Origin: Nanobdellota archaeon
Lineage (GTDB): Archaea > Nanobdellota > Nanobdellia > Pacearchaeales > GW2011-AR1
Length of the DNA stretch: 64,000 nt
Reading direction: 5' to 3'
Assembly (NCBI GenBank): GCA_030698805.1
Contig: JAUYMA010000003.1
Span: 12,167 to 76,166, forward strand
A model generated the notes under the pieces. It was not told the origin of the DNA. It saw only the letters and a list, made by a program, of their open reading frames with translations, and did not search any database. The position numbers and the translations under genes were made by a program. Position 1 is the stretch's first letter; every line of letters begins with the position of its first letter. Positions 18,098-36,312 of this stretch are shown here, piece after piece.

Positions 18098-18262
18098 ATG
18101 CAGAATTCAAGCATAAGAAGGCAAATTGTCATTACAAAGAAAATTGCCAAGCATGGCAAGCAATCAGTAGTTGTTATTCCCAGGGCTGTGGAAAGTCAAT
18201 TGAAACCTGGCACCTTAGCTAAATTTACCATTGATGTATTGGAGGAATCAAAAAATGATTAA
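18098..18262 (+). CDS. small AbrB/SpoVT/MazE-like protein (module copy 1)
   Basis: Hand-translated 54-aa ORF absent from the track (MQNSSIRRQIVITKKIAKHGKQSVVVIPRAVESQLKPGTLAKFTIDVLEESKND). It has a swapped-hairpin-like pattern (K..S..V.IP......L.PG). Paralogues lie at 35880-36047 and 36154-36312. Confidence 0.6.
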   Translation: MQNSSIRRQIVITKKIAKHGKQSVVVIPRAVESQLKPGTLAKFTIDVLEESKND

Positions 18263-19859
18263 TTCTTTACAAACTCAAAGAGCTACATTAGAAGGAGTAA
18301 TCAATTCTGAGAGATATACTGTTAAATCTTTGCTTGGCAAGGGCACATGGGGAAGAGTTTATCGAGCTGAGGATTCTCAATTGAGAATAGATGTAGCAGT
18401 CAAGGTATTGGACCCCTCTCCTTTGGCTGAAGATCAGATGAGGCATCGCCAACTTACTGAAGAACGCATCATAAAGAATGAAGCTCTTGAATTAACTGCT
18501 TGTTCTCATGTTGTGCCTAGAATGTTTGCAGTTGATAAAAATGGAAAGCCTTTCATTGTCATGCCATTATACAAAAATTTTCTCTCTGACAAGATTGAGC
18601 AAGATGGATCGCAATTATTCTTTAGGCAAGGTCTGCAGGAAAGCGATATTGTGCATTATATGAGAGATATCTCCTTAGGACTGGGAGAGTTGCACACCAA
18701 ATTAAGCAGGGTGCATGGAGATTTGAAACCAGATAATCTTGCTTTAGATTCTGAAGGCAATGTTCTTGTAAATGATCTCGGAACTTCCACTTGTGCGTCT
18801 TTAGGCTGGAGCTTGTCGCCAAGAGATAATATGGGGTTTATCTATACCCGCGCCCCAGAATGTTTTGCTAAAGATAATCAGAGGCTAAGCCATCCTACTA
18901 AAGAATCAGATGTGTGGGGATTTGGAGCATTAGCATACAGATTGTTTACTGGCAGTTATCCTTTAGAACCTGAATTTGATGGGAATAATCCAAACAAAGT
19001 CATAGAAGAGCTTGGTGTAGATGGAGGAAACAGGCTCATGAAAAATAAAGTCAGAAATGTGCCTGAAAAATTTAGAAAATACTTAAGAGAATGTTTGAAC
19101 TTTACTCCTTACTTAAGATTTCACGATGGAATACACGCTAACCAGTCCCTTCAAACACTTATTGAAAGCCGCACTCCTGCTGCAATTTTAAAGAAGAGCT
19201 TGCAAAGGGCGGCTTATATTACCGTGCCTTCTGCTCTTGTGGGATTGGGATTATATATGGGAATGGTCCATGAGCCTCAAGACTTAACCATGCCGCAAGT
19301 GAAGATGGAGGGTTACCTTTCAGTAGACAATGATATGCTTGCTGAGGGGGAGAGAATTGTTTTTGATAAAGAAAACATACCTCGTCTTCCTGTTCCTAAA
19401 CTATTTCAAGTGGGCCACCAAGCAGAAATGCGAAAAGCAACAAAAAATAGATACGCGGCATATTTGCTAAAGACTTATGTGCAGACATTTCAAGATATCC
19501 GGCAAGCTTTTGAAGTTCCATTCGTGATAACCGCTCAACATGATACCTGGAGCGGCTATACAACTGATGCAGAAAAACAAGTCCGAGGAATGTATAATGG
19601 TATTTTCTTTGTTATAGCTAGAAACATTGAAGTGGCATTAACTCAAAGCAAGACTCCTAAAGGTACAGTCGATTTGGAAGACGTATGCGCTATAAGCCGT
19701 GTTGGCATTGATAAAGTAAATGAAGCGAGAAGGGCAGCCAATAGTTTTGATTTTAATGACTATATTTATGCAAGGAACAAACATGGGGATAGAATTATAG
19801 GGGAAAGAGATGAAGAATTTGTAAAAACCTGGTTAAGTTATATTAATTTAAATCTTTAA
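18255..19859 (+). CDS. membrane-spanning Hanks-type Ser/Thr protein kinase (module copy 1)
   Basis: LLGKGTWGRVY (Gly loop), VAVKVL, HGDLKPDNLAL, VNDLGTS and TRAPE. One TM (ITVPSALVGLGLYMGMV) followed by a roughly 190-aa C-terminal domain. Start set to ATG 18255, in an 8-nt overlap (ATGATTAA) with the small ORF. Confidence 0.85.
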   Translation: MINSLQTQRATLEGVINSERYTVKSLLGKGTWGRVYRAEDSQLRIDVAVKVLDPSPLAEDQMRHRQLTEERIIKNEALELTACSHVVPRMFAVDKNGKPFIVMPLYKNFLSDKIEQDGSQLFFRQGLQESDIVHYMRDISLGLGELHTKLSRVHGDLKPDNLALDSEGNVLVNDLGTSTCASLGWSLSPRDNMGFIYTRAPECFAKDNQRLSHPTKESDVWGFGALAYRLFTGSYPLEPEFDGNNPNKVIEELGVDGGNRLMKNKVRNVPEKFRKYLRECLNFTPYLRFHDGIHANQSLQTLIESRTPAAILKKSLQRAAYITVPSALVGLGLYMGMVHEPQDLTMPQVKMEGYLSVDNDMLAEGERIVFDKENIPRLPVPKLFQVGHQAEMRKATKNRYAAYLLKTYVQTFQDIRQAFEVPFVITAQHDTWSGYTTDAEKQVRGMYNGIFFVIARNIEVALTQSKTPKGTVDLEDVCAISRVGIDKVNEARRAANSFDFNDYIYARNKHGDRIIGERDEEFVKTWLSYINLNL

Positions 19860-20772
19860 CTTCTTTCGCTATAAGCAGTTCGCTGAATAAGGGACTTGTT
19901 CCTATCTGAATTAAACGGTAAATCTCTCTAATGTAAGAAAGTAAAACTGCCTCTTCTCCCCTTGCAGATTTTATAGCTTCTAGACATTTACCAAAATGAT
20001 ATTTCTCTTTTCCTGAATTTATCTTATGAATTGCATTCTCATCTTTTCTTAAATAAGCCTCGTAATAAAGCGAGAAATAATTCTGCAATTCTTTTACGAG
20101 ATTTTTTGTTTCTTTTCCACATTTAACTTTTTTACTGGCAGCGTGAAGATAAGTATAAGATATTGCATGCCCTATATGAGTTAAAAAAGTTAGCAATTCC
20201 CAAGCTAATGCAGGATTTCTTTCCTCCTGCTCTTTCGTTAATATACGCCTACAGAAAAGAACAAATTTATCATGCTGGTCTCTCAACTCAGTTATATCTT
20301 GGAGATGTTTAAACTCTCCTTTTTCAGTGTCTCTATTTAAGATTTCAATAGTCTCCTGGATGATTATGAAAAGTCTTCTTAGGAGCACATCATATTTTTG
20401 GTCTGTTGGCTCAGAGAGATTTTCCAGAGTGCATTTATTCGCGGTTCTATCAGTCAGCTCAAATCCTAGTAAAAGGGGTAAAGTTGCTTTAATTTCTTTA
20501 AATGACTTTTCATCCAGATTTTCTATGGTAATTGCATCAAATCCTCTTCTGTAAAGATGAGTTAAGAGTGCCCTTACATCTGATCTTGCCTCATTATCTA
20601 AGACAACTAAGGTCATCTTCTTTTTTAGCACTGCTGATTGAATAATTAAAGAAGTATCTTTCTCCTGCAACCGAATTTTATCTCCTTCTTTAAGGCCTTT
20701 TTTATCCACCCATGATTTAGGAAGATAAATAGTGTAACCTCCTCCCCCTTGTTTGATGAGTGTTCTTTCCAT
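19843..20772 (-). CDS. AbrB/SpoVT-domain plus PhoU-like regulator (module copy 1)
   Basis: N-terminus MERTLIKQGGGGYTIYLPKSWVDKKGLKEGDKIRL is an AbrB/SpoVT fold pattern. It is followed by a helical, PhoU-like body with the ...FCRRIL... motif shared by all three copies. The 3' end overlaps the kinase 3' end by 17 nt. Confidence 0.75.
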   Translation of the reverse strand: MERTLIKQGGGGYTIYLPKSWVDKKGLKEGDKIRLQEKDTSLIIQSAVLKKKMTLVVLDNEARSDVRALLTHLYRRGFDAITIENLDEKSFKEIKATLPLLLGFELTDRTANKCTLENLSEPTDQKYDVLLRRLFIIIQETIEILNRDTEKGEFKHLQDITELRDQHDKFVLFCRRILTKEQEERNPALAWELLTFLTHIGHAISYTYLHAASKKVKCGKETKNLVKELQNYFSLYYEAYLRKDENAIHKINSGKEKYHFGKCLEAIKSARGEEAVLLSYIREIYRLIQIGTSPLFSELLIAKEVKDLN

Positions 20773-20986: not shown

Positions 20987-22468
20987 ATGGCTAAAAATGA
21001 AGCAATGGAAGCCCTGCAGAGGGAGAATCTGCTCTTAAAATCAGAAGTAGAGAGATTATCATCTCCACCGTTTAGAGCAGGGACAGTGCTAGACACTGGA
21101 AAAAAGACAGTCAGGGTATTTGTTGATGGCTCTGGCACTTATGAAATCGGACATAATGAATCTCTCAATGGAAAAGTTAAGAGGGGTTGCAGAGTGACAT
21201 TGAATAAAGACCTCGCAATAGTGGACTCTTCGGAATTTAGCGACTTAGGAAGTCAGGTAGCGACAGTTGATGAAGTTGAGCCAAACAGAATAAGAGTTGA
21301 ACTAAAAGGCGAACATAAATATGTATTGAGTATATCTCCCGATGTCCGGGCCGGAGATGAGGTTGTTCTTGATTCTTCTGGACTGCTTGCTATAGAAAAA
21401 CTTTCTAGGAAGAAGACGAAATATAATCTTGAGAGAGTTCCTCAAATACCTTGGGACCGAATTGGAGGATTAGAAGAAACTATCAAGAGTATACGTTCTG
21501 AGATTGAGCATCCTTTTGTTCATCGAGAAGTATATGCAAGATATGGCAGTTCTCCTATCAAAGGAGCTTTGCTTTTTGGCCCTCCAGGATGTGGGAAGAC
21601 TCTTGTAGCCAAGGCTATTGCATACAATCTTGCAAAAACTACGGGACACGAAGATGGCCATTTCATTAGCATAAAGGGACCTGAAATCCTTAATATGTGG
21701 CTTGGTAATAGCGAGGCAAATGTGAGGAGAATTTATCAGTCTGCTCGTGAAGTTGCAAATGGGGCTCTAGTGGTTATCTTTATCGATGAAGCGGAATCTA
21801 TCTTTAGAGTAAGAGGAAGCAGCGTGTCTACTGATGCTTATGATTCTATTGTGCCTCAGCTCTTAACTGAAATGGATGGATTAGAGGAGAATCATAATAT
21901 TATCACTTTGCTTGCTACCAATAGAGAAGACTCTATTGATCCTGCAGTCTTAAGACCTGGCAGAATAGACCGAAAAATAAAGATACCTCGCCCTTCAAGG
22001 GAAGGTGCTTACGAGATTTTTGGAATCTATCTTAAGGATAAACCTGTCCAAGGATTGTTTAAAGGCAGCAAAAGAGAGAGCCTGACACATGAAGCTGTTG
22101 AGAGAATCTATTCTCCAGAGCCAGTTTGTACTGTTGTCAATCCTCATGGCGAGGCCTTAGGCTCATTCACATATAGAAATATGATTAGTGGAGCGATGAT
22201 CAAAGGAATCGTAGATCGCGCTTGCAGATATGCTATCGAAAGAGAAACTGTCGGCGGCACAATCGGGATTGGTAAAGAAGATATTTCGAGAGCATTAGAT
22301 ACTGAACTTAGAGAAAACTTAGAATTAGATCAATTTTTTGTCGAGAGCGATTGGAATGATGTTTTCGGAGATAAAGGGAAGCAGATGTATGAGGCTCACA
22401 AACGCGGCTATTTACAATTTAGAAAAGGACCCGGTCAAATTCAAACAGCTGAAAGGGGGCAACAGTAA
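20987..22468 (+). CDS. ARC/Mpa-type AAA+ ATPase (coiled coil, two OB-like segments, AAA module)
   Basis: N-terminal coiled coil (EALQRENLLLKSEVERL) and two beta-rich OB-like stretches. Walker A GPPGCGKT, Walker B VVIFIDEAE, then SIFRVRGSSVSTDAYDSIVPQLLTEMDG and NREDSIDPAVLRPGRIDRKIKIPRP. These closely resemble mycobacterial Mpa / Rhodococcus ARC as I recall them. The C-terminus ...AERGQQ has no HbYX-type tail. Confidence 0.85.
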   Translation: MAKNEAMEALQRENLLLKSEVERLSSPPFRAGTVLDTGKKTVRVFVDGSGTYEIGHNESLNGKVKRGCRVTLNKDLAIVDSSEFSDLGSQVATVDEVEPNRIRVELKGEHKYVLSISPDVRAGDEVVLDSSGLLAIEKLSRKKTKYNLERVPQIPWDRIGGLEETIKSIRSEIEHPFVHREVYARYGSSPIKGALLFGPPGCGKTLVAKAIAYNLAKTTGHEDGHFISIKGPEILNMWLGNSEANVRRIYQSAREVANGALVVIFIDEAESIFRVRGSSVSTDAYDSIVPQLLTEMDGLEENHNIITLLATNREDSIDPAVLRPGRIDRKIKIPRPSREGAYEIFGIYLKDKPVQGLFKGSKRESLTHEAVERIYSPEPVCTVVNPHGEALGSFTYRNMISGAMIKGIVDRACRYAIERETVGGTIGIGKEDISRALDTELRENLELDQFFVESDWNDVFGDKGKQMYEAHKRGYLQFRKGPGQIQTAERGQQ

Positions 22469-22469
22469 G

Positions 22470-22895
22470 ATGAGAACATTAGAACAAACCCCTGAAAATC
22501 AGAAGTCTGGAGATCAGAAAGAATCGGGATTATCATCTATGGATGTAATGCCAATTATAGTTACTGCCAGACCTAGCTTGTCTGAAGCAGAGAATGCATT
22601 AATGAGAAGACTTCCTGCTTCCTATACGGAAAGAACTGTAAGAGATGTCTTAAGTTATATCATGGGATCTGCTGTAGCTGATACAGAAGCTTCAACAATG
22701 AAGAGTTTAAGAAACGAACTTGGAGCGGCTGGTAGCTATATCCTTGTTAATGGGAAAGAAGCAAAGCTGACTGACAGAGTAGAAGGATATCTTGTTGATA
22801 GAACTGAAACTGTCGAAGGCAGACCAATAAAATATCGACAGCTTGAGATAGAAATTTCTGCGGTTCAACAGGGAGGTTATCAGAGAAGATTCTAG
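22470..22895 (+). CDS. ubiquitin-like (beta-grasp, ThiS/MoaD/SAMP-like) protein precursor with GG plus 5-aa tail
   Basis: 141 aa starting 1 nt after the AAA stop. The N-terminal roughly 40 aa are polar and disordered-looking. The C-terminal part reads ...SYILVNGKEAKLTDRVEGYL...QLEIEISAVQQGG-YQRRF. The diglycine is at codons 135-136 (22872-22877). Confidence 0.6.
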   Translation: MRTLEQTPENQKSGDQKESGLSSMDVMPIIVTARPSLSEAENALMRRLPASYTERTVRDVLSYIMGSAVADTEASTMKSLRNELGAAGSYILVNGKEAKLTDRVEGYLVDRTETVEGRPIKYRQLEIEISAVQQGGYQRRF

Positions 22896-22922
22896 GAAAG
22901 AATTCTTCAGTGATGCAAGAAA

Positions 22923-23900
22923 ATGAAAAATTTAAATTTACTTTTAATTGGAGAAGAACCTTCAGAGAGGCCAATAGTAGAAAAAGGCCTTGGCCTCGAT
23001 GAAGTGCATATCTCTAGCTATGCACATGATAAAGCATTCAAATATGCTGAATTAATAATACAAAGAAAGGGAAGAAGTCTTGAAGTTGGAGGCTTTTTAA
23101 CCACGCCTAAAGAAGCAAGAGACCGAGTTGCCAGAGATGCATTTCTTGCCCGAGATCAAGAAGTTACTTCTGTTTCTTATATATTGAGTCCTCAAGATGT
23201 TAAAAAAGCTAAACAAGAGCTTGACAAAATGGGACAGAGAATTGTGGGGTGGTGGCATAGTCACGGACGTATGAGAACTTTCCACTCTGATATTGATGAT
23301 AAAAATCAGATGGTCTTGCTTAATCAAATAGCGCCTTCTAATTATTCTGTAATAAGACAAGAAGAAACAAGAGGTTTACAAAGCAGGTTAGAAGGGAACT
23401 CTCTTATTTTCTGGGATCCTGCTAATCCAAGAAAAGTATACTCTCTAGATATCAAGAATGATAATCCTGAGCTTATAGCTAAGCGATTACGCATAACTAA
23501 AGAGGAGCAGATTGGATTCGCTTATAGCTTTGTTGTTAATCATCATAGATGGTTAAATTTTAGAGTACCTTATTGTGAAATAGCCACTAGGGAAGTGTGT
23601 TCTGGATGCTTAAATGATAATGCTAAAAGTAAGACAACTGGATACAAAATATTTGATGAAGGAGATTTTGAAATTGATGAAGAACAACTTATCGTAGAAA
23701 TAGATGAACGAGTACATTTAGCTGGGACAAGGAGGAAGTATTTCTTGCCTGAAGATTTTGAAAGGGAAAGGGCTGCAGGCACGCTGACGAAACCTGAATT
23801 TGCCTTAGGCACCTCTCCAATTTACCCTGCTCATGCAAGCAATCTTGATTTGACTCAGTCTCCACCTATAAATTATGCTAAGAGGTATTGGAAAAAATGA
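22923..23900 (+). CDS. JAMM/MPN+ metalloprotease (JAB domain)
   Basis: Complete JAMM signature: E in LEVGGFL, then H-x-H-x7-S-x2-D in WWHSHGRMRTFHSDID (23256-23297). The C-terminal extension has a Cys cluster, CEIATREVCSGC. Confidence 0.85.
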   Translation: MKNLNLLLIGEEPSERPIVEKGLGLDEVHISSYAHDKAFKYAELIIQRKGRSLEVGGFLTTPKEARDRVARDAFLARDQEVTSVSYILSPQDVKKAKQELDKMGQRIVGWWHSHGRMRTFHSDIDDKNQMVLLNQIAPSNYSVIRQEETRGLQSRLEGNSLIFWDPANPRKVYSLDIKNDNPELIAKRLRITKEEQIGFAYSFVVNHHRWLNFRVPYCEIATREVCSGCLNDNAKSKTTGYKIFDEGDFEIDEEQLIVEIDERVHLAGTRRKYFLPEDFERERAAGTLTKPEFALGTSPIYPAHASNLDLTQSPPINYAKRYWKK

Positions 23901-25306
23901 TAGAAAAAAATATTAGATATGATCGACAAGAAAGAATCCAAAATTGGGACCAAAGTAAATTAACCAAAGCGAGAGCAATACTTATTGGCGGAGCACAATT
24001 AACTCATTTTACTGCGGCATCGCTAGCGGCTCTTGGAATAGGAAATATAGAAGTGTATATTCCTCAAGGAGAAAAAACACAGGGATTCCTGACACCTTTA
24101 GGGGGAGAACCTAGAGATCTTGAAAGCAAATTAAGGCAAATGAATCCCTCCTCCTCTATAAAAGTAGGAACATTTGATACAGAGCTTAACTTGACTCAGA
24201 ACCGCCCAGATATATTGCTTGATCTTACTAACTCGCCAGAGATGAAAGATAAATCAATTGGAATTTCTTCTTTGTATGGTATTCCAATAATCTCTGCTTC
24301 GAATGGTAAAACTGGAGGAGCATTCTACTTAGGGACACTGGGAGAGATACCTGCTAGTGCACGACTAGAAGATTATGCAGGTTCTACCCAAGGGGGATTT
24401 TCAAGTGAGATTATGGCTGGAATGATAACTGAAGAAGTAAGAAAAAGTTTAATGCCTTTAAGAGAAGGAGAAAAACCAGTTAAAAGCTTGGCATATCAGG
24501 GCACTGCTGAAAGAAGATTTGCTAGAGAAGGAGATTTTGAAGCAGACCCTTATGAAAACATTTCAGAAAAAAGAATATTAATCGTTGGTGCAGGAGCATT
24601 AGGCAACTTTACAGCACTGGGGGCTGCTCTTGAAGGAATAGGAAATATAGATATATTAGACTTTGATGAGGTTGAGGCCCACAACCTTAATAGACAAATA
24701 CTATTTTACGATGCAGTTGGAAGAAAGAAAGCAGAGGCTTTGGCCGCAAAGGTAAGAGAAATTAATCCTCATGCAGAGGTAAGAAGTCTTGTAGGAAAGC
24801 TTGATGAGAATACTATTTATTTTGAGAAAAATAGACCTGACGTGATATTAGATTGTGTGGATAATTTTGCGACAAGAGCCCTAATTAATTACTTTGCCGT
24901 GAGATATGGCATACCTCTCGTTTCAGGAGGCACAAATTCTCAATCTGGACAAGTTGTAGTATACGAACCTGGAATGAGTTCGTGCCTTCAATGTAAATTA
25001 GATGTGGAGAAAACTCTTGCCCTCTCATTACAAGGAAGCAAATGTACAAACTCTCCTGATCCTAGCGTAATTATGACAAACGAAATCGTTGGGGGTATGA
25101 TGATTGGAGAGACACTCAAAGTCATGGACAAAGGATATGGCACGCCTGTCTCCAAGATTCTTAAATATGATTCGAATGTCCCTATCCGGGGCGGATTAAT
25201 TGGAGCAGGAGACCCCTGCGATTGTACGCGCGGAGATATGAAGAAGTGGTTGACAGGAGTCAAAGAGAGACTTGAAGATATTTCGGAGGCATCTCATGGC
25301 GTTTAG
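23897..25306 (+). CDS. E1-like activating enzyme with two fused ThiF/MoeB-type domains
   Basis: First half has RYDRQ plus a degenerate nucleotide loop (ILIGGAQLT). Second half is a canonical adenylation domain: ILIVGAGALGN, DFDEVEAHNLNRQILF and DCVDNFATR, with paired Cys motifs CLQC and CDC. ATG 23897 forms an ATGA overlap with the JAB stop; the track start at 23888 is TTG. Confidence 0.85.
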   Translation: MIEKNIRYDRQERIQNWDQSKLTKARAILIGGAQLTHFTAASLAALGIGNIEVYIPQGEKTQGFLTPLGGEPRDLESKLRQMNPSSSIKVGTFDTELNLTQNRPDILLDLTNSPEMKDKSIGISSLYGIPIISASNGKTGGAFYLGTLGEIPASARLEDYAGSTQGGFSSEIMAGMITEEVRKSLMPLREGEKPVKSLAYQGTAERRFAREGDFEADPYENISEKRILIVGAGALGNFTALGAALEGIGNIDILDFDEVEAHNLNRQILFYDAVGRKKAEALAAKVREINPHAEVRSLVGKLDENTIYFEKNRPDVILDCVDNFATRALINYFAVRYGIPLVSGGTNSQSGQVVVYEPGMSSCLQCKLDVEKTLALSLQGSKCTNSPDPSVIMTNEIVGGMMIGETLKVMDKGYGTPVSKILKYDSNVPIRGGLIGAGDPCDCTRGDMKKWLTGVKERLEDISEASHGV

Positions 25307-26114
25307 ATTAGGAGAAGAAGTTATTATCAGAAAAGCATCGGCAGGTCAAGGTAATTATTATCATGGTGGGACAGTAAAACAAGTTCCTCTCGGATCTCGC
25401 GGAAGAATAGTTGAGATGGATGCTCCTGAATCCATTAGGCTTTTTTTGGAAGCCAACCCTAAAGCCGAAGTAAATCCTAGAAAGAGAAATTTTTGGGATA
25501 AAGTAATAGAATATCTTGGCATAAAGGAAAAGTTCCTTGAAAAGTCTTCGTACTGGCTTGTTCATCCTGCGGAGATTTCTCCAAGATCCGATCCTTCTCC
25601 AAAACCCCAGATTTCAACATCAAATCTACAGCTACTCTTGAGCAATAATACTATTGAGGCAGTTAACGATGCAGACAAATCTGCTTTTCAACCTGGATTT
25701 AACGTTAGAGAAGAATTTGCAGTGTGGGTAAGAAAACAATTCCCTCAATTAGAAGATTATGTGAAAAGAAAGGAGAAATATAAAGAATTAGAAGAAAGAA
25801 GAGATGAAGTTATGTCCGGAGCTAGAAAAGCATATGATCATGCTATGCAAACTGCTGGAGGTTGTGCAAGAACTGGATTTCAAGTTTCTTTTGCAAGACT
25901 GATAGGCGATAAAAACACTCTCACAGGTCTTGAAGGATCTGCTTTAGATGCCCCTGATCGTTCAGTAAAATATTTTACTATGAAAGAGGAAGATACCGAA
26001 GGAAGCGAATCAGAGCTATTTCCCTCTAATTTGAATAAATTTGTAATAACTATAGAACGCTCTTCTCTCAGTCTCGGTAGTAAAGATAAACACTATGGGA
26101 CAAGGAGGAAATAA
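25296..26114 (+). CDS. unknown-family protein P1 (Ubl-operon paralogue family)
   Basis: 272 aa, with a GGAGG SD-like site 7 nt upstream and an 11-nt overlap with the E1 stop. Shares GNYYHGGTVKQVPLGS, FQPGFNVREEF-x-VWVR-x-QFP and EERRDEV-x9-H-x7-C with P2 (and P3). Confidence 0.6.
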   Translation: MAFRLGEEVIIRKASAGQGNYYHGGTVKQVPLGSRGRIVEMDAPESIRLFLEANPKAEVNPRKRNFWDKVIEYLGIKEKFLEKSSYWLVHPAEISPRSDPSPKPQISTSNLQLLLSNNTIEAVNDADKSAFQPGFNVREEFAVWVRKQFPQLEDYVKRKEKYKELEERRDEVMSGARKAYDHAMQTAGGCARTGFQVSFARLIGDKNTLTGLEGSALDAPDRSVKYFTMKEEDTEGSESELFPSNLNKFVITIERSSLSLGSKDKHYGTRRK

Positions 26115-26115
26115 A

Positions 26116-26910
26116 ATGAATGGAAATACTTTGGGTGAGATGTTATTGGCTGCAGAACCTTTTGATATAGGTCAAGAAGTCGCTATAAGGAGAGCCTTGA
26201 ATGGGAAAGGCAATTATTATCATGGTGGGACAGTAAAACAAGTTCCCTTAGGTTCAAAGGGCACTATCATTGAATTAGGAGGACAGAGCATAAAACTTCT
26301 TTTAGCGAGAAAGCCTAATATTGAAGCTATTCCTGAAAAGAAAACATTATGGAATACGATAAGAAGCTACTTCGGCCTGAAAGAGATAAGAGCTGAGCGT
26401 CCTGATAATGAAAATTATTGGACAGTACATCCTGACGAAATTGCTTCAAAAAATCCTTCTATTCCAAGACCCAAAGTTGAAGAAGCAAATCTTGAAAATC
26501 TCCTAAAAGGAAATGTTGTTGAAACAGTGAATGAATCTGGCAGCACTGCTTTTCAACCTGGATTTAACGTTAGAGAAGAATTCGTAGTGTGGGTAAGGGA
26601 ACAGTTTCCTGATTTAGAAAAATATGCAGGGGGAAGAAAGTCTTATTCAGAGCTCGATGAACGTAGAGAGGAAGTAAGACTCGCTGCGATAAAAGCCTGC
26701 CAACACGGAGTTAAGACCACTAATAGTTGTGTTAAAGGATATTTTGAAGATCATCTCTCTTATTTCAGAGGCTCTGACGGTGGGAGATTCTATAATAATT
26801 TGTGCGCATTAACCCAGCTTATTGAACAAGTTGCAGTCAATATAGGCCGGTCGTCTAATTGGCATTACGGAACTAATTTGAAAAGAGGGAGGAGAAAAAA
26901 CAATGAATAA
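26116..26910 (+). CDS. unknown-family protein P2 (paralogue of P1)
   Basis: 264 aa from ATG 26116, with AGGAGG upstream and 1 nt after the P1 stop. An alternative ATG is at 26095. Same motif set as P1. Confidence 0.6.
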   Translation: MNGNTLGEMLLAAEPFDIGQEVAIRRALNGKGNYYHGGTVKQVPLGSKGTIIELGGQSIKLLLARKPNIEAIPEKKTLWNTIRSYFGLKEIRAERPDNENYWTVHPDEIASKNPSIPRPKVEEANLENLLKGNVVETVNESGSTAFQPGFNVREEFVVWVREQFPDLEKYAGGRKSYSELDERREEVRLAAIKACQHGVKTTNSCVKGYFEDHLSYFRGSDGGRFYNNLCALTQLIEQVAVNIGRSSNWHYGTNLKRGRRKNNE

Positions 26911-27676
26911 AAAGATTTTAGATAAAATGCTGTTGGCTCCTGAGCCTGAAGTCGGACACTCTTCTGAAAAGGGATTTAATCCTATTTTTAATGTGAGGGA
27001 GGAGTTCCCCCTATGGGTGCAAGAACAATTTAAGCATTTAACCAAACATGCAAAGAGAAAAATGGCTTATGAGGAACTTGAAAAGCGTAGAGATGAGGTC
27101 TATCAGGCTGCGCTTGGGGTGGTTAAACATGGTTTGATGTCTACTGATGCCTGTGCAACAGCAAGGTTGCGAGAAGGATGGGAAGATTTTGAAAGAGGAT
27201 TTGGCGAACAAAGTAATCCCGCGGGAAGAGCTGGAAGTCTAGAGAAATTTGTAGAAGCAATAAAAGACTTGTCAGTAAGTCTTGGTGGGAATTCCCACTA
27301 TACTGAAGCAGGCATTTTCTTAGGAGGCAATAATTATAAAACTGGGAACCTTAAAGCATTTGTTTATAGAATAGGCGATAAAAACGGAGAGAACTCTGAA
27401 TATTTTATTCTTGAGGAACCTCAGACATTTGAGGGAGATATTCAGCCCGCCCTCATCGGAGAACTTACTCATTTAACAAATAAAGATGTAACTATTCTTA
27501 GAAGGCTTGCTGACTACTTCAAAGGTCCCGAAATTGATTTTATTGAGCGTGCTGATCGCATTGTACCTGAAGAAGGAAGCAGACCTTGGGCAAGCTCATT
27601 TTACGGAGTTGCTGAAAGATTAAAGGGCTATGGAAGGGGTTTATCTTCATGGCTGGGAGGGGAAGATGAACTTTGA
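26903..27676 (+). CDS. unknown-family protein P3 (paralogue lacking the N-terminal GNYYHGG domain)
   Basis: 257 aa with an 8-nt overlap (ATGAATAA) with P2. Keeps MLLAPEP, GFNPIFNVREEFPLWVQEQF and EKRRDEV-x9-H-x7-C. The RIGDKN motif sits in a different order than in P1. Confidence 0.6.
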   Translation: MNKKILDKMLLAPEPEVGHSSEKGFNPIFNVREEFPLWVQEQFKHLTKHAKRKMAYEELEKRRDEVYQAALGVVKHGLMSTDACATARLREGWEDFERGFGEQSNPAGRAGSLEKFVEAIKDLSVSLGGNSHYTEAGIFLGGNNYKTGNLKAFVYRIGDKNGENSEYFILEEPQTFEGDIQPALIGELTHLTNKDVTILRRLADYFKGPEIDFIERADRIVPEEGSRPWASSFYGVAERLKGYGRGLSSWLGGEDEL

Positions 27677-27998
27677 ATATCAATTTTTTCTGGGCAATGA
27701 TGAATATGGCCTGGATATTGCCCTAAAATATAATGCTTTTAGAGAAGAAAATTCTGCTAGAGAAGACATGAAATTATCAGATAGAATGAATTATATGGGA
27801 AGATTTTGTGCTGAAGCGGGATTAAGACACCCTGATGTTTTTTTGGAAATTGAGGATGCAAGAGAAAAGCAAAGATTGAAGGAAATGAGGAAGAGTGCTA
27901 TTGCTGGAATAATGGTAAGGGGAGGAAGCGTTGCTGCTGGAGATTCTCTTAGGAGGAGAGTTGAGCAGAAAATTAAAGAAAATGGCAAATTTGATTGA
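27666..27998 (+). CDS. hypothetical protein (110 aa), Ubl operon
   Basis: ATG 27666 overlaps the P3 stop by 11 nt. No family recognised. Confidence 0.45.
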   Translation: MNFEYQFFLGNDEYGLDIALKYNAFREENSAREDMKLSDRMNYMGRFCAEAGLRHPDVFLEIEDAREKQRLKEMRKSAIAGIMVRGGSVAAGDSLRRRVEQKIKENGKFD

Positions 27999-29103
27999 TA
28001 GAACCGTAGAAGGAAGAATGGCTTATATTCAGAGGTTAGAAGCTAAAGTTAAGAAAGCTGTTAGCGGGGATGTTGATGAGGATTATAGAAAGCTTATTGC
28101 TGAACCGTTAGAAAAAGCTAGAGGCATACCATATTTTGATGATAAACATGCAGCCGTATCTGGAAAACCATTCACATGGGGAAATTTATCAGTAATTCCT
28201 GAAATTGCTGGAATTAGGAATATACACCACCATACTCTTGCAGGGCAGATAGAGCAAGTTAAGGCTTGTGTTGATAATTATTTTAGAATGCTGTTAGAAC
28301 CAATCGCATCCATGCCTTTCTTTTATGCTGATCCTGCATACGATGTTGAGCCAAATTGTGTTGGAGCCAGCCAAATTGTTAGTCGTATTTATGGTTATGA
28401 GCACCCCATTGATGATTTAGAGATGCTTGTAGTTAATTCATCTAAAAGGCGAGATATCTTGCTTGATAAGTTGAGGAACTTTGATAAGCTACCTGGAGCA
28501 ATTGTAGCTGGAGAGAGATGGGTTAGCAGCAATTTTGATGCTTTTAGCAAGGATTTCAGAGAGGAAGAATTAAGAGATAAATTACTTGACCAGGTCTTAT
28601 TGATAGAAGAGAGCAATCATGTTGTTGTGAAAAAAAGAGGGGGAGAAGTATTTGACTTTCCTATTGAAAGGGATAATATAAAGAGGCATGAGGTATGCGG
28701 AATTAGGGAGGGCCTTTGGGTTGCCGGAGTATCTAGCCTTATTGCTCTATACCAATACTTGAATCAGGATGTGGAGAGCCAGTGGAAAGAAATTAGGAAT
28801 AGAGTTGGAGAGGTCAGCAAATCTGCACGAGTTACCGTAGATTATTCTTTAGGGAGAGAGTGCTTTGATGAATTAAGGGAAATTTTTGGAGAGGACTTGC
28901 CTGCAAGATATGTTATGGTTGAATTAAGCTCGAGAAGAAATGAAATGGATTTTGTCAGATATGCATTGGATAGAGTGAGAAGAGAATATCCTTATCCTAA
29001 GGCCCTGGAAGTTATTGGAAAAAGGTATCTTGGGGAAGAAGGATATGGTGAACTTGCTGCAGAAATTTTGAAAGCTGAAAAAGGAGGGGAAGATGAAAAA
29101 TAA
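27982..29103 (+). CDS. hypothetical protein (373 aa), Ubl operon
   Basis: ATG 27982 overlaps the previous stop by 17 nt. No family recognised; it contains a possible nucleophile context, EPNCVGASQ. Confidence 0.5.
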   Translation: MANLIDRTVEGRMAYIQRLEAKVKKAVSGDVDEDYRKLIAEPLEKARGIPYFDDKHAAVSGKPFTWGNLSVIPEIAGIRNIHHHTLAGQIEQVKACVDNYFRMLLEPIASMPFFYADPAYDVEPNCVGASQIVSRIYGYEHPIDDLEMLVVNSSKRRDILLDKLRNFDKLPGAIVAGERWVSSNFDAFSKDFREEELRDKLLDQVLLIEESNHVVVKKRGGEVFDFPIERDNIKRHEVCGIREGLWVAGVSSLIALYQYLNQDVESQWKEIRNRVGEVSKSARVTVDYSLGRECFDELREIFGEDLPARYVMVELSSRRNEMDFVRYALDRVRREYPYPKALEVIGKRYLGEEGYGELAAEILKAEKGGEDEK

Positions 29104-29419
29104 AATAGAAAGAAAACCTTTTGTAATCACTAACTGCCATAAACGCAACTTTAGGGATTGGGTGCAAGATCAGTTTCCTGAAATAAAAAAACATTCTTTT
29201 AGTGATAGTCCTCCTTATACTGCCTTAGAAGAACGCTTTGATGAAGTCCATGCCGCAGCACGACAAGTCTTCAATATTATTTTCTCACGTTCTGATCATG
29301 ATTTACAACGCTATTATTCCCAAGATCGAACTGCTTTAGGTCAAGCTCATCAAAGAAGAGACATCCGAGCGTATGCTTGTGCACTTGATGCTTTTCTTGG
29401 GGCGATTAAGGAGGAATAA
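29093..29419 (+). CDS. unknown-family protein P4 (short paralogue, no H/C pair)
   Basis: 108 aa with an 11-nt overlap. NFRDWVQDQFPEI ... ALEERFDEV aligns without gaps to the P1-P3 core, but the conserved His and Cys are absent. Confidence 0.5.
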   Translation: MKNKIERKPFVITNCHKRNFRDWVQDQFPEIKKHSFSDSPPYTALEERFDEVHAAARQVFNIIFSRSDHDLQRYYSQDRTALGQAHQRRDIRAYACALDAFLGAIKEE

Positions 29420-29420
29420 A

Positions 29421-30467
29421 ATGGACTTATATCAATTAATTACTCAGGCAGTTGGAGGATTCTCGGTTGGTTTAGGGGCCTCTTTGAATTACAAAAGATA
29501 TAATGAAGCAGTGAATAGCATGGAATATGCAAAATTAATTGATGAATCTAGATTGGGAAAAGAATTAGAAAGCAAGGGTTTGACTGAGGAAAAATTAAAA
29601 AATTGGCATGAAGCAAATCGCAGACTTAATATCTTATCTCCTTATCTTTATGGCTTTGGATTTTCAGTAGCCACTAGCATAGCCTCGTTTGCCCAATGGA
29701 ATTTTGGTGAAAATGTTTTGATTTCAGTACCATCTGCTTACCTCGGCTTTGCTGCTGGAGTCTTGACTCATAGAATTAAAAATATGAAATTTAGGGAGGA
29801 GATGCAAATAGCCCAAGAGATGAAGAGAAATCCAGATTCTATTGAAGCTCTTCTTACTGAAAATGAAAGATCAACTATCAGGACTTCCTTGGAACAAATT
29901 GAGCAAGGAATGTTTGAAGGAAGCTTTAACCCTCTTACTTCAAAGCCGCTTTTCCTAATCTACTCTACTGTAATCGAGAGAAATAAAGTTTACACGCCTT
30001 TAGTTACCCAATGGAGCTTAAAGGAAATTGAAAAAGCAATATCTTCCGGCAAATTACAAAAAGATCTTAAAGATTTCTATGAAACTCCTCTTCCCATTGG
30101 GGGGAGCATTGCTACTGCCTCCCTTAACTCTCTTGTAATAGAAAGGCCGACTCGTGTCTTTGTAAGGGAAGGGGATAAGTTTTATTCTCTAGATGTTTCC
30201 TGGAAGAATATTCGAATTATAGAACAAGATGAGACTAAAGAAGTAAGCATATGTGGCACTGCTCCGGATCTAAGAAAGATCCAAGAAGAATCTTGGAATC
30301 CTGATTACAAAACCCTGGCGCATATTGTTGAAGAGCATGGCAAAGATGCAAATAGAGTTATAATGCTCGCTCCTGAGAATACTTCTCTGGGACTTCAGGG
30401 AGCGATATTAACACAAAATTATGTGGAAGAACTAGTAAGAAGACTGAAGAATGAGAAAAAGAACTAA
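29421..30467 (+). CDS. membrane protein with C-terminal soluble domain, last gene of the Ubl operon
   Basis: ATG 29421 is 1 nt after the P4 stop, with AAGGAGG upstream. Hydrophobic segments are LITQAVGGFSVGLGASL, YLYGFGFSVATSIASFAQW and LISVPSAYLGFAAGVLT, followed by about 220 soluble residues. No family recognised. Confidence 0.5.
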   Translation: MDLYQLITQAVGGFSVGLGASLNYKRYNEAVNSMEYAKLIDESRLGKELESKGLTEEKLKNWHEANRRLNILSPYLYGFGFSVATSIASFAQWNFGENVLISVPSAYLGFAAGVLTHRIKNMKFREEMQIAQEMKRNPDSIEALLTENERSTIRTSLEQIEQGMFEGSFNPLTSKPLFLIYSTVIERNKVYTPLVTQWSLKEIEKAISSGKLQKDLKDFYETPLPIGGSIATASLNSLVIERPTRVFVREGDKFYSLDVSWKNIRIIEQDETKEVSICGTAPDLRKIQEESWNPDYKTLAHIVEEHGKDANRVIMLAPENTSLGLQGAILTQNYVEELVRRLKNEKKN

Positions 30468-32818: not shown

Positions 32819-33730
32819 ATGCAAAGAAAGCTTATTGGCCAGGGTTTAGGAGGAATTACTGTTCACTTACCTAAAAGATGGATCGATGCTCATCACTTGA
32901 AGAAAGGAAATGAGATAGACATAGAAGATTCTGAAGGAAAATTGATAATATCCCCTAAAAAGATAAATAAAGATAAAAAAGAAACTTCTATCAGGCTCTC
33001 AGGATTAGAAGAATCTCTTATTAGAACACTTATTGCAAATACTTACAGGTTAGGATACGACTCTATCAAGGTAGATTTTGAAAATGAAAAACAATTTCAA
33101 ATATTAAATGAGATAATTCAAAAAAGATTAATTGGTTTTGAGATAATCAAAAAAGATTCCGGAAGCTGCATTGTAGAAAATGTGACTGAACCCGAAGAAG
33201 ATCAGTTTGGTAATATTATGCAGAAGCTCTTTCTTAATATAGATACATTGCTGGAAAATATTAATCAACTATGCTCCTCGGATAAAGCTCAGATTAGCGA
33301 GAGTATTGATGAACTAGATGATAGGATACTGAAATATGACAATTTCTGCAGGAGGATATTATTAAGAAGGAGATTTGATGAAAAATCTGCTTTGCATTTA
33401 GCTTTCTTGACTATGATTATACATGGAGAAAGAGAATTATATTATCTTTCTAAGTCTATTGGCAAAGGTATGAAGTGCTCTTCAGAAACTCTTAAGATTA
33501 TAGGTGGTATTGCTCAAATTAACAAACTTATTCAAGAAGCCTATAATAAGAAAAAATTTGATAATCTAGCAGATATTAATGCTATTGGAAGGAGAATTAT
33601 CTATAAAGAAGGCTATAAATTAATGGAAAATAAAAAAGGAAAGGAGCTTATTGTGATACATCATCTCTTAGCATGCACCAGGGATTTTTACCAAGCAGTC
33701 AGCCCATTGAGCGGATTATTGTTCACGTGA
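32819..33730 (+). CDS. AbrB/SpoVT-domain plus PhoU-like regulator (module copy 2)
   Basis: MQRKLIGQGLGGITVHLPKRWIDAHHLKKGNEIDI N-terminus and a helical body with YDNFCRRILLR. The 3' end overlaps the kinase 3' end by 15 nt. Confidence 0.75.
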   Translation: MQRKLIGQGLGGITVHLPKRWIDAHHLKKGNEIDIEDSEGKLIISPKKINKDKKETSIRLSGLEESLIRTLIANTYRLGYDSIKVDFENEKQFQILNEIIQKRLIGFEIIKKDSGSCIVENVTEPEEDQFGNIMQKLFLNIDTLLENINQLCSSDKAQISESIDELDDRILKYDNFCRRILLRRRFDEKSALHLAFLTMIIHGERELYYLSKSIGKGMKCSSETLKIIGGIAQINKLIQEAYNKKKFDNLADINAIGRRIIYKEGYKLMENKKGKELIVIHHLLACTRDFYQAVSPLSGLLFT

Positions 33731-35887
33731 CCTATATTCTATGACCTTCTCTGCGAAATCCTGAGAAGGCACTGAAATATTCCAATCAAGCAGTTTATAT
33801 CCATTATTGTTTGTTCCGTGATATATTGGATAGGCGGTAGAGAAGTTAGTCTCCCCCGTCTTATTGTTTATCAAGTCGATAAGCAGAGTATATTCTCCAT
33901 GGGGTGTTTCATTGCCTGGAAGGGGAATGTAATGAATATACTTATTAGTTTCAGAGAATCCTAATTCAGGTATTGAATAAGTTGCAGATAAATCTCCTTT
34001 TTCATTTAAATGATATGTTCTTTCTTCTTCGAAAATTCCATTAGTATGAATATATGTACTTACCCCAACATCATTGTCCCCATATGAAAACCTAAGCCCT
34101 GTGATTCGTGCATGTCTGTTAGGTATATCTCCTACTACTATGGGAATTCTTTGTTGCGCTAAGATATTGTTTGTATTGCAATTTATTATAAATTCTCCCT
34201 CATCTTTAGGGTTTGCAGCTCTTGGTGGGAGAGAATCGACAAGGAGAGTATAATTTCCAGAAGGGAAATTAGTGGGGATTTTTATTGTGGTTGAAGAAGG
34301 ATACCCTGATCCAAAAGGCAAGTTTTTAGGAGGAACTAACTTAGGATCTCTAGAAGATGTATTGAATATCTCTGGAGAGATATTGGTATTGCCTTCTACT
34401 GCAACTTCGATAGGATAAATTAAATAAGGAACCCTAAATTGTTTTGATTGAAGAGGTTTCTGAATAATATTTGCGAATACTCTCACCTCATCTCCTTGTT
34501 GTAGATGCAATATTGATGTTTTTTCTGGATATCTTTGACCTGGAGCAACTGCCCAAGTACTCAATTCATAAAGAGCTGAGGGCTGGAGATTATTATTACC
34601 GTCCCAATCCGAATTAATCTCAATTGTTCTTTCTTTATCGTTCAATTGCTTTTCTGCATCTTTAAGTTTGGCATTATCTAAATGAGCATAGTAGCCAAGC
34701 GCAGAGATTGCTAAAGCACTTGCGGCTGCTGCAACAGTATTTCTTGGGGAAGAAGGTTTTTCCCAAAATGATGGACTAGAGGCTTCCTCAAATTTTTCTA
34801 GAAGTTTACCTAAATTATTTATGCGACTCGAACCTAAAGTCAATCCATGATAAAGGAGGTCTCTAAATTTTCTTGCATTTTTTGGTAGCTTACTCAATGC
34901 CTTATTTAGTTGTGATTCATATTGATTGACATCGAGGTGCTCTGGACTATAAGGGTCAACTATGAGGAAATCTTTTCCTAAAAGCATCATACCAAACATT
35001 TTCGTTAGAGAGTAAACTTCAGAAGCCTCATCATAATGTGAGGGCTTACCTGTTCTTGAACTCATTAGTCTAGGATCGCAAGTGGTTCTTCCTGGGCAGG
35101 AATGAGTATAGCTATCCACTACTTCTCCGTCGACTCCTGCTGCAGAAGTATCAGTTATCACTATCTCTCCTAATCTGTCTTCCAAAGAAACTAAAACATT
35201 AGAAGGTTTTAAGTCTCTGTGAAGATGGCCTGTCTTCTGCCTGAATCTCTGAGCCGAACTAAACATTTGCTCTGCAAATGAAGAAGCAATTGGCAAAGGA
35301 ACCTTCTCCTTTTGGTCTAATATGTCTTGAAGAGAAACTGATGGAATAAAAGTTTCAGCATAAGCATAGCTTCCTGCATATCCGACATCGGATAGTTCCT
35401 TGCAGGCTATCGGGGCTGAAAATCCTGGCATTCGCTGAAGATTTAGCGCCATATTTGCTTCTCTCCTAGCATTATAGCCCTTCCTAAAATGTTTAAGCAT
35501 AGCTGGAGAAGGATTATTCAGCATAATCTCTCCCTCGGGTTTATCCATCTTAACTGCAAGGCGAAGATTATTGCCTGAACCATCAAATACCGATTCTGCT
35601 ACAAATACTGTTTTAATGTTCCCCTCCGCACAATAGGCCCAATTAGTGTAATCTGGGAATTTTTTCTTTAGAGCATCTACCTTTGTCTTTAATTCTAAGG
35701 AAAGATCATTATAAGGAGTAATTCTAGGCCCTTGTATTTCTTGGAGAAATTCCTTGAGAGTCATGGTCCTTTGAGGCTTCTCAAATAAAGATTTTATGCC
35801 TCTCCATACATACCCAATATAATCTGGTCCTGGAAATTGACTTTGGCCCTTTCTTACCTTAACAAGTGCTACCTCTAATTCAGGCAT
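33716..35887 (-). CDS. membrane-spanning Hanks-type Ser/Thr protein kinase (module copy 2)
   Basis: LAVKM, HLHRDLKPSNVLV and ITDTSAAG. One TM (VAAAASALAISALGYYAHL) and a roughly 330-aa C-terminal ectodomain homologous to that of copy 3. Start set at ATG 35887 (8-nt overlap ATGCCTGA); the track start is 35911. Confidence 0.8.
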   Translation of the reverse strand: MPELEVALVKVRKGQSQFPGPDYIGYVWRGIKSLFEKPQRTMTLKEFLQEIQGPRITPYNDLSLELKTKVDALKKKFPDYTNWAYCAEGNIKTVFVAESVFDGSGNNLRLAVKMDKPEGEIMLNNPSPAMLKHFRKGYNARREANMALNLQRMPGFSAPIACKELSDVGYAGSYAYAETFIPSVSLQDILDQKEKVPLPIASSFAEQMFSSAQRFRQKTGHLHRDLKPSNVLVSLEDRLGEIVITDTSAAGVDGEVVDSYTHSCPGRTTCDPRLMSSRTGKPSHYDEASEVYSLTKMFGMMLLGKDFLIVDPYSPEHLDVNQYESQLNKALSKLPKNARKFRDLLYHGLTLGSSRINNLGKLLEKFEEASSPSFWEKPSSPRNTVAAAASALAISALGYYAHLDNAKLKDAEKQLNDKERTIEINSDWDGNNNLQPSALYELSTWAVAPGQRYPEKTSILHLQQGDEVRVFANIIQKPLQSKQFRVPYLIYPIEVAVEGNTNISPEIFNTSSRDPKLVPPKNLPFGSGYPSSTTIKIPTNFPSGNYTLLVDSLPPRAANPKDEGEFIINCNTNNILAQQRIPIVVGDIPNRHARITGLRFSYGDNDVGVSTYIHTNGIFEEERTYHLNEKGDLSATYSIPELGFSETNKYIHYIPLPGNETPHGEYTLLIDLINNKTGETNFSTAYPIYHGTNNNGYKLLDWNISVPSQDFAEKVIEYRSREQ

Positions 35888-36047
35888 TTTCTTTCTCCTC
35901 CAGATTTTCATGAATGAGATCTATCTTCAATTGAGTAAGCATGCCTGGCTTAATTATTCCTTCAAGATCTTTTGGAATTACAATTACTGATTGCCTGCCG
36001 TGTTTTGCAATTCTTTTAGTTATAATAATTGATTTTGGGCCTTTCAT
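35880..36047 (-). CDS. small AbrB/SpoVT/MazE-like protein (module copy 2)
   Basis: Hand-translated 55-aa ORF absent from the track (MKGPKSIIITKRIAKHGRQSVIVIPKDLEGIIKPGMLTQLKIDLIHENLEEKENA). Confidence 0.6.
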   Translation of the reverse strand: MKGPKSIIITKRIAKHGRQSVIVIPKDLEGIIKPGMLTQLKIDLIHENLEEKENA

Positions 36048-36153: not shown

Positions 36154-36312
36154 ATGGAAAGCAAAAAATTCGTTATAACGAAAAAAGTCGCCAAGCATGG
36201 AAGCCAGGCCATCATAGTTATCCCTAGAATTCTTGAATCTGAGCTTAAACCTGGCACTATTGCTCAAGTGACTATTGAAATTATAGAAAGCCAAGGAGGA
36301 CAAAATGAGTGA
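36154..36312 (+). CDS. small AbrB/SpoVT/MazE-like protein (module copy 3)
   Basis: Hand-translated 52-aa ORF absent from the track (MESKKFVITKKVAKHGSQAIIVIPRILESELKPGTIAQVTIEIIESQGGQNE). Confidence 0.6.
   Translation: MESKKFVITKKVAKHGSQAIIVIPRILESELKPGTIAQVTIEIIESQGGQNE

Follow-up and report, generated by a model that had tools for sequence, protein, structure and literature searches.

A helical Cys/His protein family beside the E1 gene of a ubiquitin-like operon in DPANN archaea: a candidate non-UBC transfer factor

What carries an activated ubiquitin-like protein (Ubl) to its targets, in an operon that encodes a candidate Ubl, an activating enzyme (E1), a JAB-type protease and an unfoldase, but no canonical conjugating enzyme (E2)? 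The question is raised by eleven open reading frames (ORFs), closely packed or overlapping on the plus strand at 20987-30467 of a 64,000-nucleotide (nt) stretch of contig JAUYMA010000003.1 from a Nanobdellota archaeon; we call this whole stretch the window, and nucleotide positions are those of the window. Prokaryotic ubiquitin-like systems are being explored for what they reveal of the origin of eukaryotic ubiquitination and as a source of new enzyme chemistry (Bil, CBASS Cap2, Bub); to our knowledge the E2 step, in all characterised systems that have one, is performed by a protein of the UBC fold. An initial annotation, made from the sequence, noticed four related genes of an unrecognised family, P1 to P4, within the operon. 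Here we examine that family and suggest, tentatively, that P1-P3 are a non-UBC, Cys-dependent, E1-coupled factor for Ubl transfer, resembling an E2 or a ligase (E3) in role; this is the single most likely of the readings that we weigh. P1, P2 and P3 are identical to the NCBI hypothetical proteins Q8Q31_00445, Q8Q31_00450 and Q8Q31_00455, from a metagenome-assembled genome (MAG) named 'Nanoarchaeota archaeon'.

The four ORFs and their coordinates, all on the plus strand, are as first annotated (Table 1), and their paralogy is borne out by pairwise comparison (P1 with P3, BLASTP E = 1e-19; P3 with P4, E = 9e-07) and by a family hidden Markov model (HMM), which matches P1, P2, P3 and P4 at 1e-36 to 1e-94. 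P1-P3 have the core motif F-N-V-R-E-E-F..W-V..Q-F-P…Y.ELE.R.DEV, and the gapless RRDEV-x9-H-x7-C pattern attributed to them is exact: counted from the Val of R(R/F)(D/E)EV, a His stands at +10 and a Cys at +18 in each (V172, H182 at nt 25839-41 and C190 at nt 25863-65 in P1; V187, H197 and C205 in P2; V66, H76 and C84 in P3). A later motif (FV..IE..S.SLG..HY) is also common to P1-P3 and extends to their homologues; the further key residues are N136 and H266-Y267 in P1, and the corresponding tail in P3 is H132-Y133. P4 lacks both the His and the Cys, with I62 and D70 in their places, and is also without the Asn and the HY tail; its counterpart of the core motif is degenerate (NCHKRNF) and it ends in …AIKEE-COOH. 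An N-terminal GNYYHGGTVKQVPLGS(R/K)G domain, with the pattern GNYYHGG…VPLGS, is confined to P1 and P2; P3, which has no such domain, runs from MLLAPEP directly into the core, and its low-complexity tail ends SWLGGEDEL. The one sequence claim that did not survive is that RIGDKN occurs in a different order in P1 and P3: the match is of 16 residues with a pairwise E of 0.007, hhalign gives a relocation no profile-profile support, and the likeness is probably due to chance. Separately, P2 opens with MNGNTLGEMLLAAEP ahead of its SH3-like domain (26116-26160, compared with 26903-26950), a near-copy of the P3 N-terminus (MNKKILDKMLLAPEP) and of the linker helix LxxLLxGEEP that usually stands ahead of the core, which suggests recombination or domain insertion in the history of P2.

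The initial annotation let its case depend in part on whether the His and Cys are conserved across homologues. When 104 core domains were aligned with hmmalign, 91 spanned both the FNVREEF motif and the Cys column. NxRE, His and Cys occur together in 56 of these, mostly with the HY tail, and all four elements are absent from 23, which form the P4 class; in another six the Cys is retained, the upstream His is lost and a His follows the Cys immediately (C-H-R). The Cys is conserved in 66 of the 91 domains, among which the Asn is present in every one (66/66) and the His in 56. Such joint retention and loss supports the view that His and Cys behave as a single functional site, and the initial case survives this attempt to refute it.

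Where that site would lie is indicated by AlphaFold2 (AF2) models of P1 (alignment of 35 sequences, mean predicted local distance difference test score, pLDDT, of 79, with 90-97 in the core) and P3 (91 sequences, mean pLDDT 83). In both, the core is an up-down helical bundle of about 110 amino acids (aa); the helices of P3 (31-42, 46-52, 57-61, 63-80, 83-100 and 106-122, of which 31-61 make up one broken helix) have pLDDT above 90. Helix B ends at the His, eight residues before the Cys, which itself follows an S/T-T cap and falls in the first turn of helix C, where thiolates are known to be favoured; the invariant Asn of FNVREEF stands at the start of helix A. Given this topology, the bundle would be expected to bring together, at one of its ends, the start of helix A, the B-C turn and the tail after helix D (SLGG..HY). 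The N-module of P1 is modelled as a small beta domain, and the C-module of P3 as three strands and two helices.

These models dispose of a likeness from which the question of E2 activity first arose, that of the His…Cys spacing to the HPN…Cys arrangement of E2 enzymes. The UBC fold consists of an N-terminal helix, a four-stranded antiparallel sheet and C-terminal helices; the P core is purely helical, no UBC, RWD or UEV fold appears among its Foldseek matches in the PDB, Pfam gives no UQ_con match at E <= 0.1, and hhalign of the 91-sequence family profile with UBE2D2 returns a probability of 0.95%. On the predicted structures, then, the P family is not UBC, RWD or UEV, and since the His closes a helix and the Cys opens the one after it, the resemblance in spacing is structurally coincidental. 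The family was rightly called unrecognised: P1-P4 have no match in Pfam (E <= 0.1), NCBIfam, PADLOC or PHROGs, profiles of the family and of the SH3-like module find only noise among PDB sequences, and Foldseek finds nothing below E = 0.06 for the P1 model in the PDB or the P3 model in the PDB and BFVD. Its matches are generic SH3 barrels and four-helix bundles only, the nearest to the core being bundles of the PsbQ, FAT and FliS-like kinds (E >= 0.8). For the N-module, the best is the REP domain of Mind bomb (Mib1 MZM-REP), with a probability of 0.95 but E = 0.39; MIB1 is met at E = 0.99 when the module profile is run against PDB sequences, and SH3_15 (PF18346) matches, or comes near threshold in, three of 68 SH3-containing relatives (best E = 1.3e-05), P1 not being one of them.

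The family is rare and DPANN-specific. A word-indexed search of 5.8 billion proteins returned 34 clusters, and exhaustive HMMER of 1.84 billion representatives at 50% identity returned 183 clusters at E <= 1e-3, many of which match the N-terminal module only; among 185,579 species-representative genomes, members with His and Cys occur in two, both Nanoarchaeota/Nanoarchaeia MAGs. We divided the family into three HMMs, for the SH3-like N-module, the core of about 110 aa and the C-module, and its architecture proved modular. A single SH3-like domain precedes the core in 38 proteins (SH3-core, the P1/P2 type) and two or three such domains do so in four; 16 are of the P3 type (core-Cterm), the only class with the C-domain; 41 consist of the core only, including the P4 type of about 105 aa; and 60 have the SH3-like module alone or in other proteins. 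This last module is also found in tandem repeats in proteins of 577-1069 aa, and it heads an unrelated family of about 430-550 aa encoded outside the window (P0101, P0102, P0106, P0087 and P0096), which has no Pfam match and is marked by the motifs HPLFELAEQ…, FGF..H.G.YY.Y..VP.FAI and GEVIAKRL.

A search with the trimmed core alignment led to related loci, seven of which are of the Ubl type with usable flanks: the window, L001, L002, L006, L007, L009 and L010. Where the contig covers the position, the gene families common to these are the Ubl, the JAB protease, E1, the Mpa-like AAA and the P family, and no others; they hold no further conserved ORF that might serve as an E2, and because no further gene is conserved we conclude, as initially proposed, that this operon type holds no canonical E2. 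An E2 hidden among the uncharacterised ORFs of the operon was considered and rejected, since the 122- and 390-aa ORFs between P3 and P4 are conserved in no related locus and are therefore not core machinery. In all seven Ubl-type loci that offer enough context, as in a further 15 metagenome loci, genes with His and Cys stand in tandem beside E1, and the stop and start codons of genes flanking E1 often overlap; in the window, the start of P1 overlaps the E1 stop by 11 nt. The 15 further loci have the order [SH3-core]n then core-Cterm, and those on contigs of sufficient length also show E1, JAB, Ubl and AAA. At least one SH3-core member is found at every locus with enough context, and no locus has a second core-Cterm gene; in L001 six family genes follow one another, one of them with three SH3 domains. 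The operon type is restricted to DPANN archaea.

The P4 class behaves differently, and its behaviour is best seen in a locus where the operon has another form. In L008 (2407-8967 of ENA ERZ28563660 scaffold_16006), compared here with window positions 16108-17280 and 29093-30467, the order is a Toprim gene, a gene for an Mpa-like AAA, a Pup_ligase of 650 aa, a bona fide Pup (a 61-aa ORF ending …NYQQSGGQ), a second Pup_ligase, the P4-class gene P0004 and Z364, a hydrophobic protein. Identity to the window's counterparts is 89-92% for its Toprim, P4 and Z364 proteins (92% for P0004 and P4), and only 39% for its AAA; no Ubl, JAB, E1 or His/Cys member is found at the locus, and the Pup cassette occupies the place of the window's Ubl, JAB, E1 and P1-P3. 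L008 carries a complete cassette of the pupylation type, a Pup system in a DPANN archaeon, and the difference from the window looks like a swap between two protein-tagging systems; we found no literature on either such a Pup system or such a cassette swap. Conversely, the window has no Pup-ligase homologue and no ORF ending in GGQ or GGE, and is no pupylation locus. At L011, a second Pup-ligase locus, the P4-class gene overlaps the stop codon of the ligase, and at L012 and L013 it comes immediately after a short ThiF. From these placements after Pup ligases and ThiF we conclude that the Cys-less class accompanies whichever enzyme activates a protein C-terminus and, as L008 retains P4, Z364 and AAA without any His/Cys member, that the His/Cys classes go with E1 chemistry and not with the AAA.

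Of 29 P4-class proteins, 23 have a C-terminus that is exactly [ILV]-x-[W/V/C]-Glu, and a Gln ends another two; the class takes in the window P4, P0004, P0022, P0032 and P0076-P0172. P4 is a separate, widespread and, on our reading, non-catalytic class, not just a paralogue without the motif, and its members could be ligatable tags or pseudo-substrates. Z364 (348-364 aa) is an accessory gene of the window, L002 (two copies), L008 and L010, found also in L025; in both the window and L008 it forms a pair with P4, and L010 and L025 hold Z364 and a core-only gene, adjacent in L025. It matches nothing in the family libraries, and may be a membrane partner or a target of the system.

What P1-P3 could do depends on the enzymes beside which they are encoded. 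The E1 has a Pfam ThiF match (E = 2e-52) at residues 216-429; its orthologues show two ThiF matches, the N-terminal half being a degenerate second domain. Seven orthologues keep GAGALG, NLNRQ, CxxC…LQGxKCT…CxC and the crossover-loop Cys without variation, and retention of this Cys predicts that the enzyme is capable of forming a thioester; with its CxxC…CxC, crossover Cys and no UFD it is of the MoeB/UbaA type. The candidate Ubl has the C-terminal part ..ILVNGK..LEIEISAVQQGG followed by a tail of 5 aa, YQRRF; in the alignment of seven orthologues AVQQGG is invariant and 3-10 aa follow it. The Ubl profile found only noise among PDB sequences, which include solved Ubls, and a beta-grasp fold is presumed from position, size and the GG-plus-tail end. 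Ahead of the presumed beta-grasp domain, the N-terminal 70 or so aa (22470-22680) form a conserved extension, PII(A/V)TARPSL..ALMRRLP (also read as P-I-I-A-T-A-R-P-x-L…S-A-L-M-R-R-L-P-S-x-Y), which might, by analogy with Pup, be recognised or threaded by the Mpa-like AAA. The JAB protein (Pfam Prok-JAB E = 7e-08, 32.7 bits against a cutoff of 25; NCBIfam desampylase E = 4e-06) has its H-S-H…D motif visible in the translation (WWHSHGRMRTFHSDIDD) and would process the Ubl tail and remove conjugates. The AAA has the Pfam domains AAA and Prot_ATP_ID_OB_N/C, i.e. both proteasomal OB domains, and scores 378 bits over its full length against the NCBIfam model TIGR03689 (pup_AAA), under the cutoff of 504.75. 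It is present in all five Ubl-type loci whose contig reaches that position (the window, L002, L006, L007 and L009), the sixth member of its BLAST cluster being the AAA of L008.

With these parts a pathway can be proposed in which P1-P3 take the place of the missing E2/E3. JAB would trim the Ubl to …QQGG; the two-domain E1 would adenylate it and bind it as a thioester on the crossover-loop Cys; the Ubl would move to the Cys of an E1-bound P protein and then on to lysines of targets, chosen by the SH3-like domains, with their variable copy number, and by the single-copy P3 subunit; and the Mpa-like AAA would unfold the tagged proteins. We favour a transfer role because the Asn/His/Cys site is conserved as a block, because the genes are obligatory, E1-adjacent and distributed like subunits in a system with no other E2 candidate, and because in the Pup cassette one ligase replaces E1 plus P1-P3. 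Taken together, comparative genomics tilts toward an E1-coupled enzymatic role for P1-P3.

Several points weigh against transfer by P1-P3. Up-down helical bundles such as this are a generic fold, for which there is no precedent as a thioester carrier, and it is from topology that Asn, His, Cys and HY are placed together at one of its ends. With His, Cys, His and Glu, the residues would be just as apt for a metal site, structural or catalytic, and the subclass without the upstream His has its Cys and His adjacent. Strong sequence conservation of the SH3-like domain is easier to reconcile with a common partner than with diverse substrates. Finally, archaeal SAMP conjugation needs no E2 and, given this precedent and an E1 without a UFD-type E2-recruiting domain, an E2 may be unneeded here too.

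The last point leads to the main rival, a doubtful but serious one, in which conjugation is E2-independent and SAMP-like and the P proteins are non-catalytic adaptors, receptors or regulators, whose SH3-like and core domains bind the Ubl, E1 or the Mpa-like AAA and whose Asn/His/Cys/His cluster is a structural metal or hydrogen-bond site. Beyond the type of E1, it draws on the plain helical bundle of the core, typical of binding modules, on the SH3-like module, a classic peptide-binding fold with Mind bomb REP as its nearest match, and on the P4 class, in which the core is retained without the site. A receptor nevertheless leaves unexplained why the Asn is present without exception, why Cys and His are near-invariant and why they are lost as a block; moreover, the His/Cys genes are coupled to E1 and not to the AAA gene, and they are absent from Pup-type loci with the same kind of AAA.

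The remaining possibilities seem weaker. One, which we think unlikely, keeps the new non-UBC transfer by P1-P3 and joins to it a role for P4 as a ligatable folded tag or pseudo-substrate; if it were true, DPANN archaea would swap Ubl/E1 cassettes for Pup/PafA ones, and the reverse, while a helical-domain partner stays common to both. Quite improbable also is that the P proteins are dedicated Ubl targets encoded in the operon, a diversified panel of substrates tagged for remodelling or unfolding by the AAA. There are several paralogues per locus, up to the six of L001, the P3 class has a Lys-rich loop between helices A and B (AKRKM, AKKKK), and conjugation partners encoded in the operon have precedents such as the CD-NTase of type II CBASS (PMC10097602). 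Against this, no Lys column of the core alignment is conserved above 58%, so there is no invariant Lys as a fixed acceptor site; a passive target would have no use for a polar cluster like that of an enzyme; and the fixed composition of the loci resembles the subunits of a machine.

Least probable of all is that the His/Cys core is some other thiol enzyme, either a hydrolase or transpeptidase (a deconjugase, for Ubl-tail processing or chain editing) with Cys, His and Asn, as in the classic papain-type triad, and with its Cys at a helix N-terminus, or a redox or persulfide carrier tied to E1 sulfur chemistry. E1/Ubl/JAB trios do occur in sulfur-transfer pathways such as CysO/Mec+ (PMC1779556), but protease function is already supplied by JAB (in two copies in L001), the loci contain no rhodanese or biosynthetic enzyme genes, the Mpa-like unfoldase points to protein tagging and not to cofactor synthesis, and Foldseek shows no similarity to known thiol hydrolases.

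The operon and the genes around it are set out in Table 1. The 122-, 390- and 364-aa ORFs gave nothing meaningful against Pfam, NCBIfam, PADLOC and PHROGs, and Rfam and tRNA scans of the operon region found no RNA elements. Elsewhere the window encodes aEF-2, aEF-1alpha, SMC, Csm6, peptidase M16 and several Ser/Thr kinases, and is therefore chromosomal DNA of a Nanoarchaeota (DPANN) MAG. A viral or mobile origin was rejected on the same housekeeping genes (aEF-2, aEF-1alpha and SMC) and because no P-family relatives lie on IMG/VR viral contigs; likewise, membership of a known defence system was rejected, PADLOC matching only a generic AAA, E1 and JAB. Some 16 kb upstream lies the gene for a Csm6-type HEPN protein, one of a family of ancillary nucleases of CRISPR type III. 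The kinase and MazE-like genes immediately upstream of the operon have homologues upstream of it in L002 and L006 too; both cluster across the window, L002 and L006 at BLAST E 1e-5; at E 1e-6 the MazE-like gene still clusters in all three, and the upstream kinase groups with L002 only, the L006 kinase joining another kinase of the window (36305-38434). The window has at least three kinase-domain genes, these two included, and three paralogues of the 309-aa protein, counting the one at 19843-20772.

Table 1. Operon genes and neighbouring features of the window
Feature	Position	Strand	Remarks
Csm6-type HEPN protein	3445-4821	-	
Ser/Thr protein kinase	18231-19859	+	upstream neighbour of operon; Pfam
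MazE/AbrB-domain protein, 309 aa	19843-20772	-	upstream neighbour of operon; Pfam
Mpa/ARC-like AAA+ ATPase	20987-22468	+	operon gene 1; N-terminal coiled coil and two OB domains
Candidate Ubl, 141 aa	22470-22895	+	AVQQGG and tail; 7 orthologues aligned
JAB/MPN+ metalloprotease	22923-23900	+	Pfam Prok-JAB, NCBIfam desampylase
E1-like enzyme	23888-25306	+	degenerate N-terminal ThiF-like half and active adenylation domain in a single chain
P1	25296-26114	+	SH3-like domain (1-98) and helical core (128-267)
P2	26116-26910	+	SH3-like domain and helical core
P3	26903-27676	+	helical core (22-133), beta/alpha C-domain (136-231), low-complexity tail
Two overlapping ORFs (122 aa, 390 aa)	27630-29103	+	between P3 and P4; no family match
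P4, 108 aa	29093-29419	+	core-only class
Z364, hydrophobic protein	29421-30467	+	paired with P4; no family match
MazE/AbrB-type paralogue	32819-33730		
Gene listed with the upstream kinase and MazE-like genes and with 36305-38434	33716-35911	-	
Kinase-domain gene	36305-38434	+	
MazE/AbrB-type paralogue	38413-39297		

The operon is significant because it joins an E1 in fused-dimer form, a GG-tailed Ubl, JAB and an Mpa-like unfoldase to an obligatory and expanded helical family which bears Cys, His and Asn and stands in the place of UBC. Should that family transfer the Ubl, E2/E3 function would have been invented independently here, within a testable tagging-and-unfolding pathway encoded wholly by one operon; even if the family is non-catalytic, it is a new obligatory component of such a system. 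The apparent exchange of Ubl/E1 and Pup/PafA cassettes between flanking genes of 89-92% identity bears on the evolution of protein tagging. In the literature that we searched, nothing relevant turned up on the P family, this operon type, Ubl or Pup systems of DPANN archaea or a non-canonical E2 of helical fold, and the nearest comparisons are with better-known systems.

With UBC-fold E2 enzymes, including bacterial Bil/Cap2 E2s and the UEV pseudo-E2s, the P genes share their operon position beside E1, Ubl and JAB, and the Cys, the His about eight residues upstream and the invariant Asn recall the residues of HPN…C; loosely, the Cys-less P4 class parallels UEV. They differ in that the core is all-alpha where the UBC fold is alpha/beta, in the lack of sequence or profile similarity, in an Asn some 50 residues before the His instead of in an HPN tripeptide, and in having N-terminal SH3-like domains and several paralogues per operon. 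The all-helical, Cys-dependent E3 ligases of bacteria, NEL/IpaH and SidC, offer the concept of a helical domain, neither UBC nor HECT, with a catalytic Cys, but the P core has only about 110 aa and the P models match neither NEL nor SidC in fold or sequence in the PDB search. Mind bomb, with its SH3_15/REP substrate-binding repeats, likewise places an SH3-like module ahead of a ligase module (a candidate one in the P family), although the SH3_15 similarity is weak, in both the fold match and Pfam.

The E2-independent SAMP/UbaA/HvJAMM1 system is, like ours, archaeal, and shares with it a MoeB/ThiF-type E1 with Zn motifs and a crossover Cys, a JAB deconjugase of the desampylase kind and a beta-grasp-like tag ending in GG (the fold being presumed here). 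In the window, however, the E1 is a fused pseudo-dimer of a degenerate N-terminal half and an active domain, the Ubl has its long N-terminal extension and a C-terminal tail that needs processing, and all components lie in one operon with an Mpa-like AAA and the P family, of which SAMP systems have no counterpart. To Pup-Mpa-PafA/Dop the window is linked by its AAA, closest to Mpa/ARC, by the same logic of tag, activating enzyme, detagging enzyme and unfoldase, and by the Pup cassette at the equivalent locus L008, which shares P4 and Z364; the tag of the window, on the other hand, is a GG-ended Ubl with an E1, whereas Pup is disordered and has a glutamine-synthetase-like ligase, and the His/Cys classes occur only with the E1 version. 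As a whole, the system is a variant of known systems of Ubl conjugation and unfolding, and its new components are the helical Cys/His family and the P4 class with its terminal Glu.

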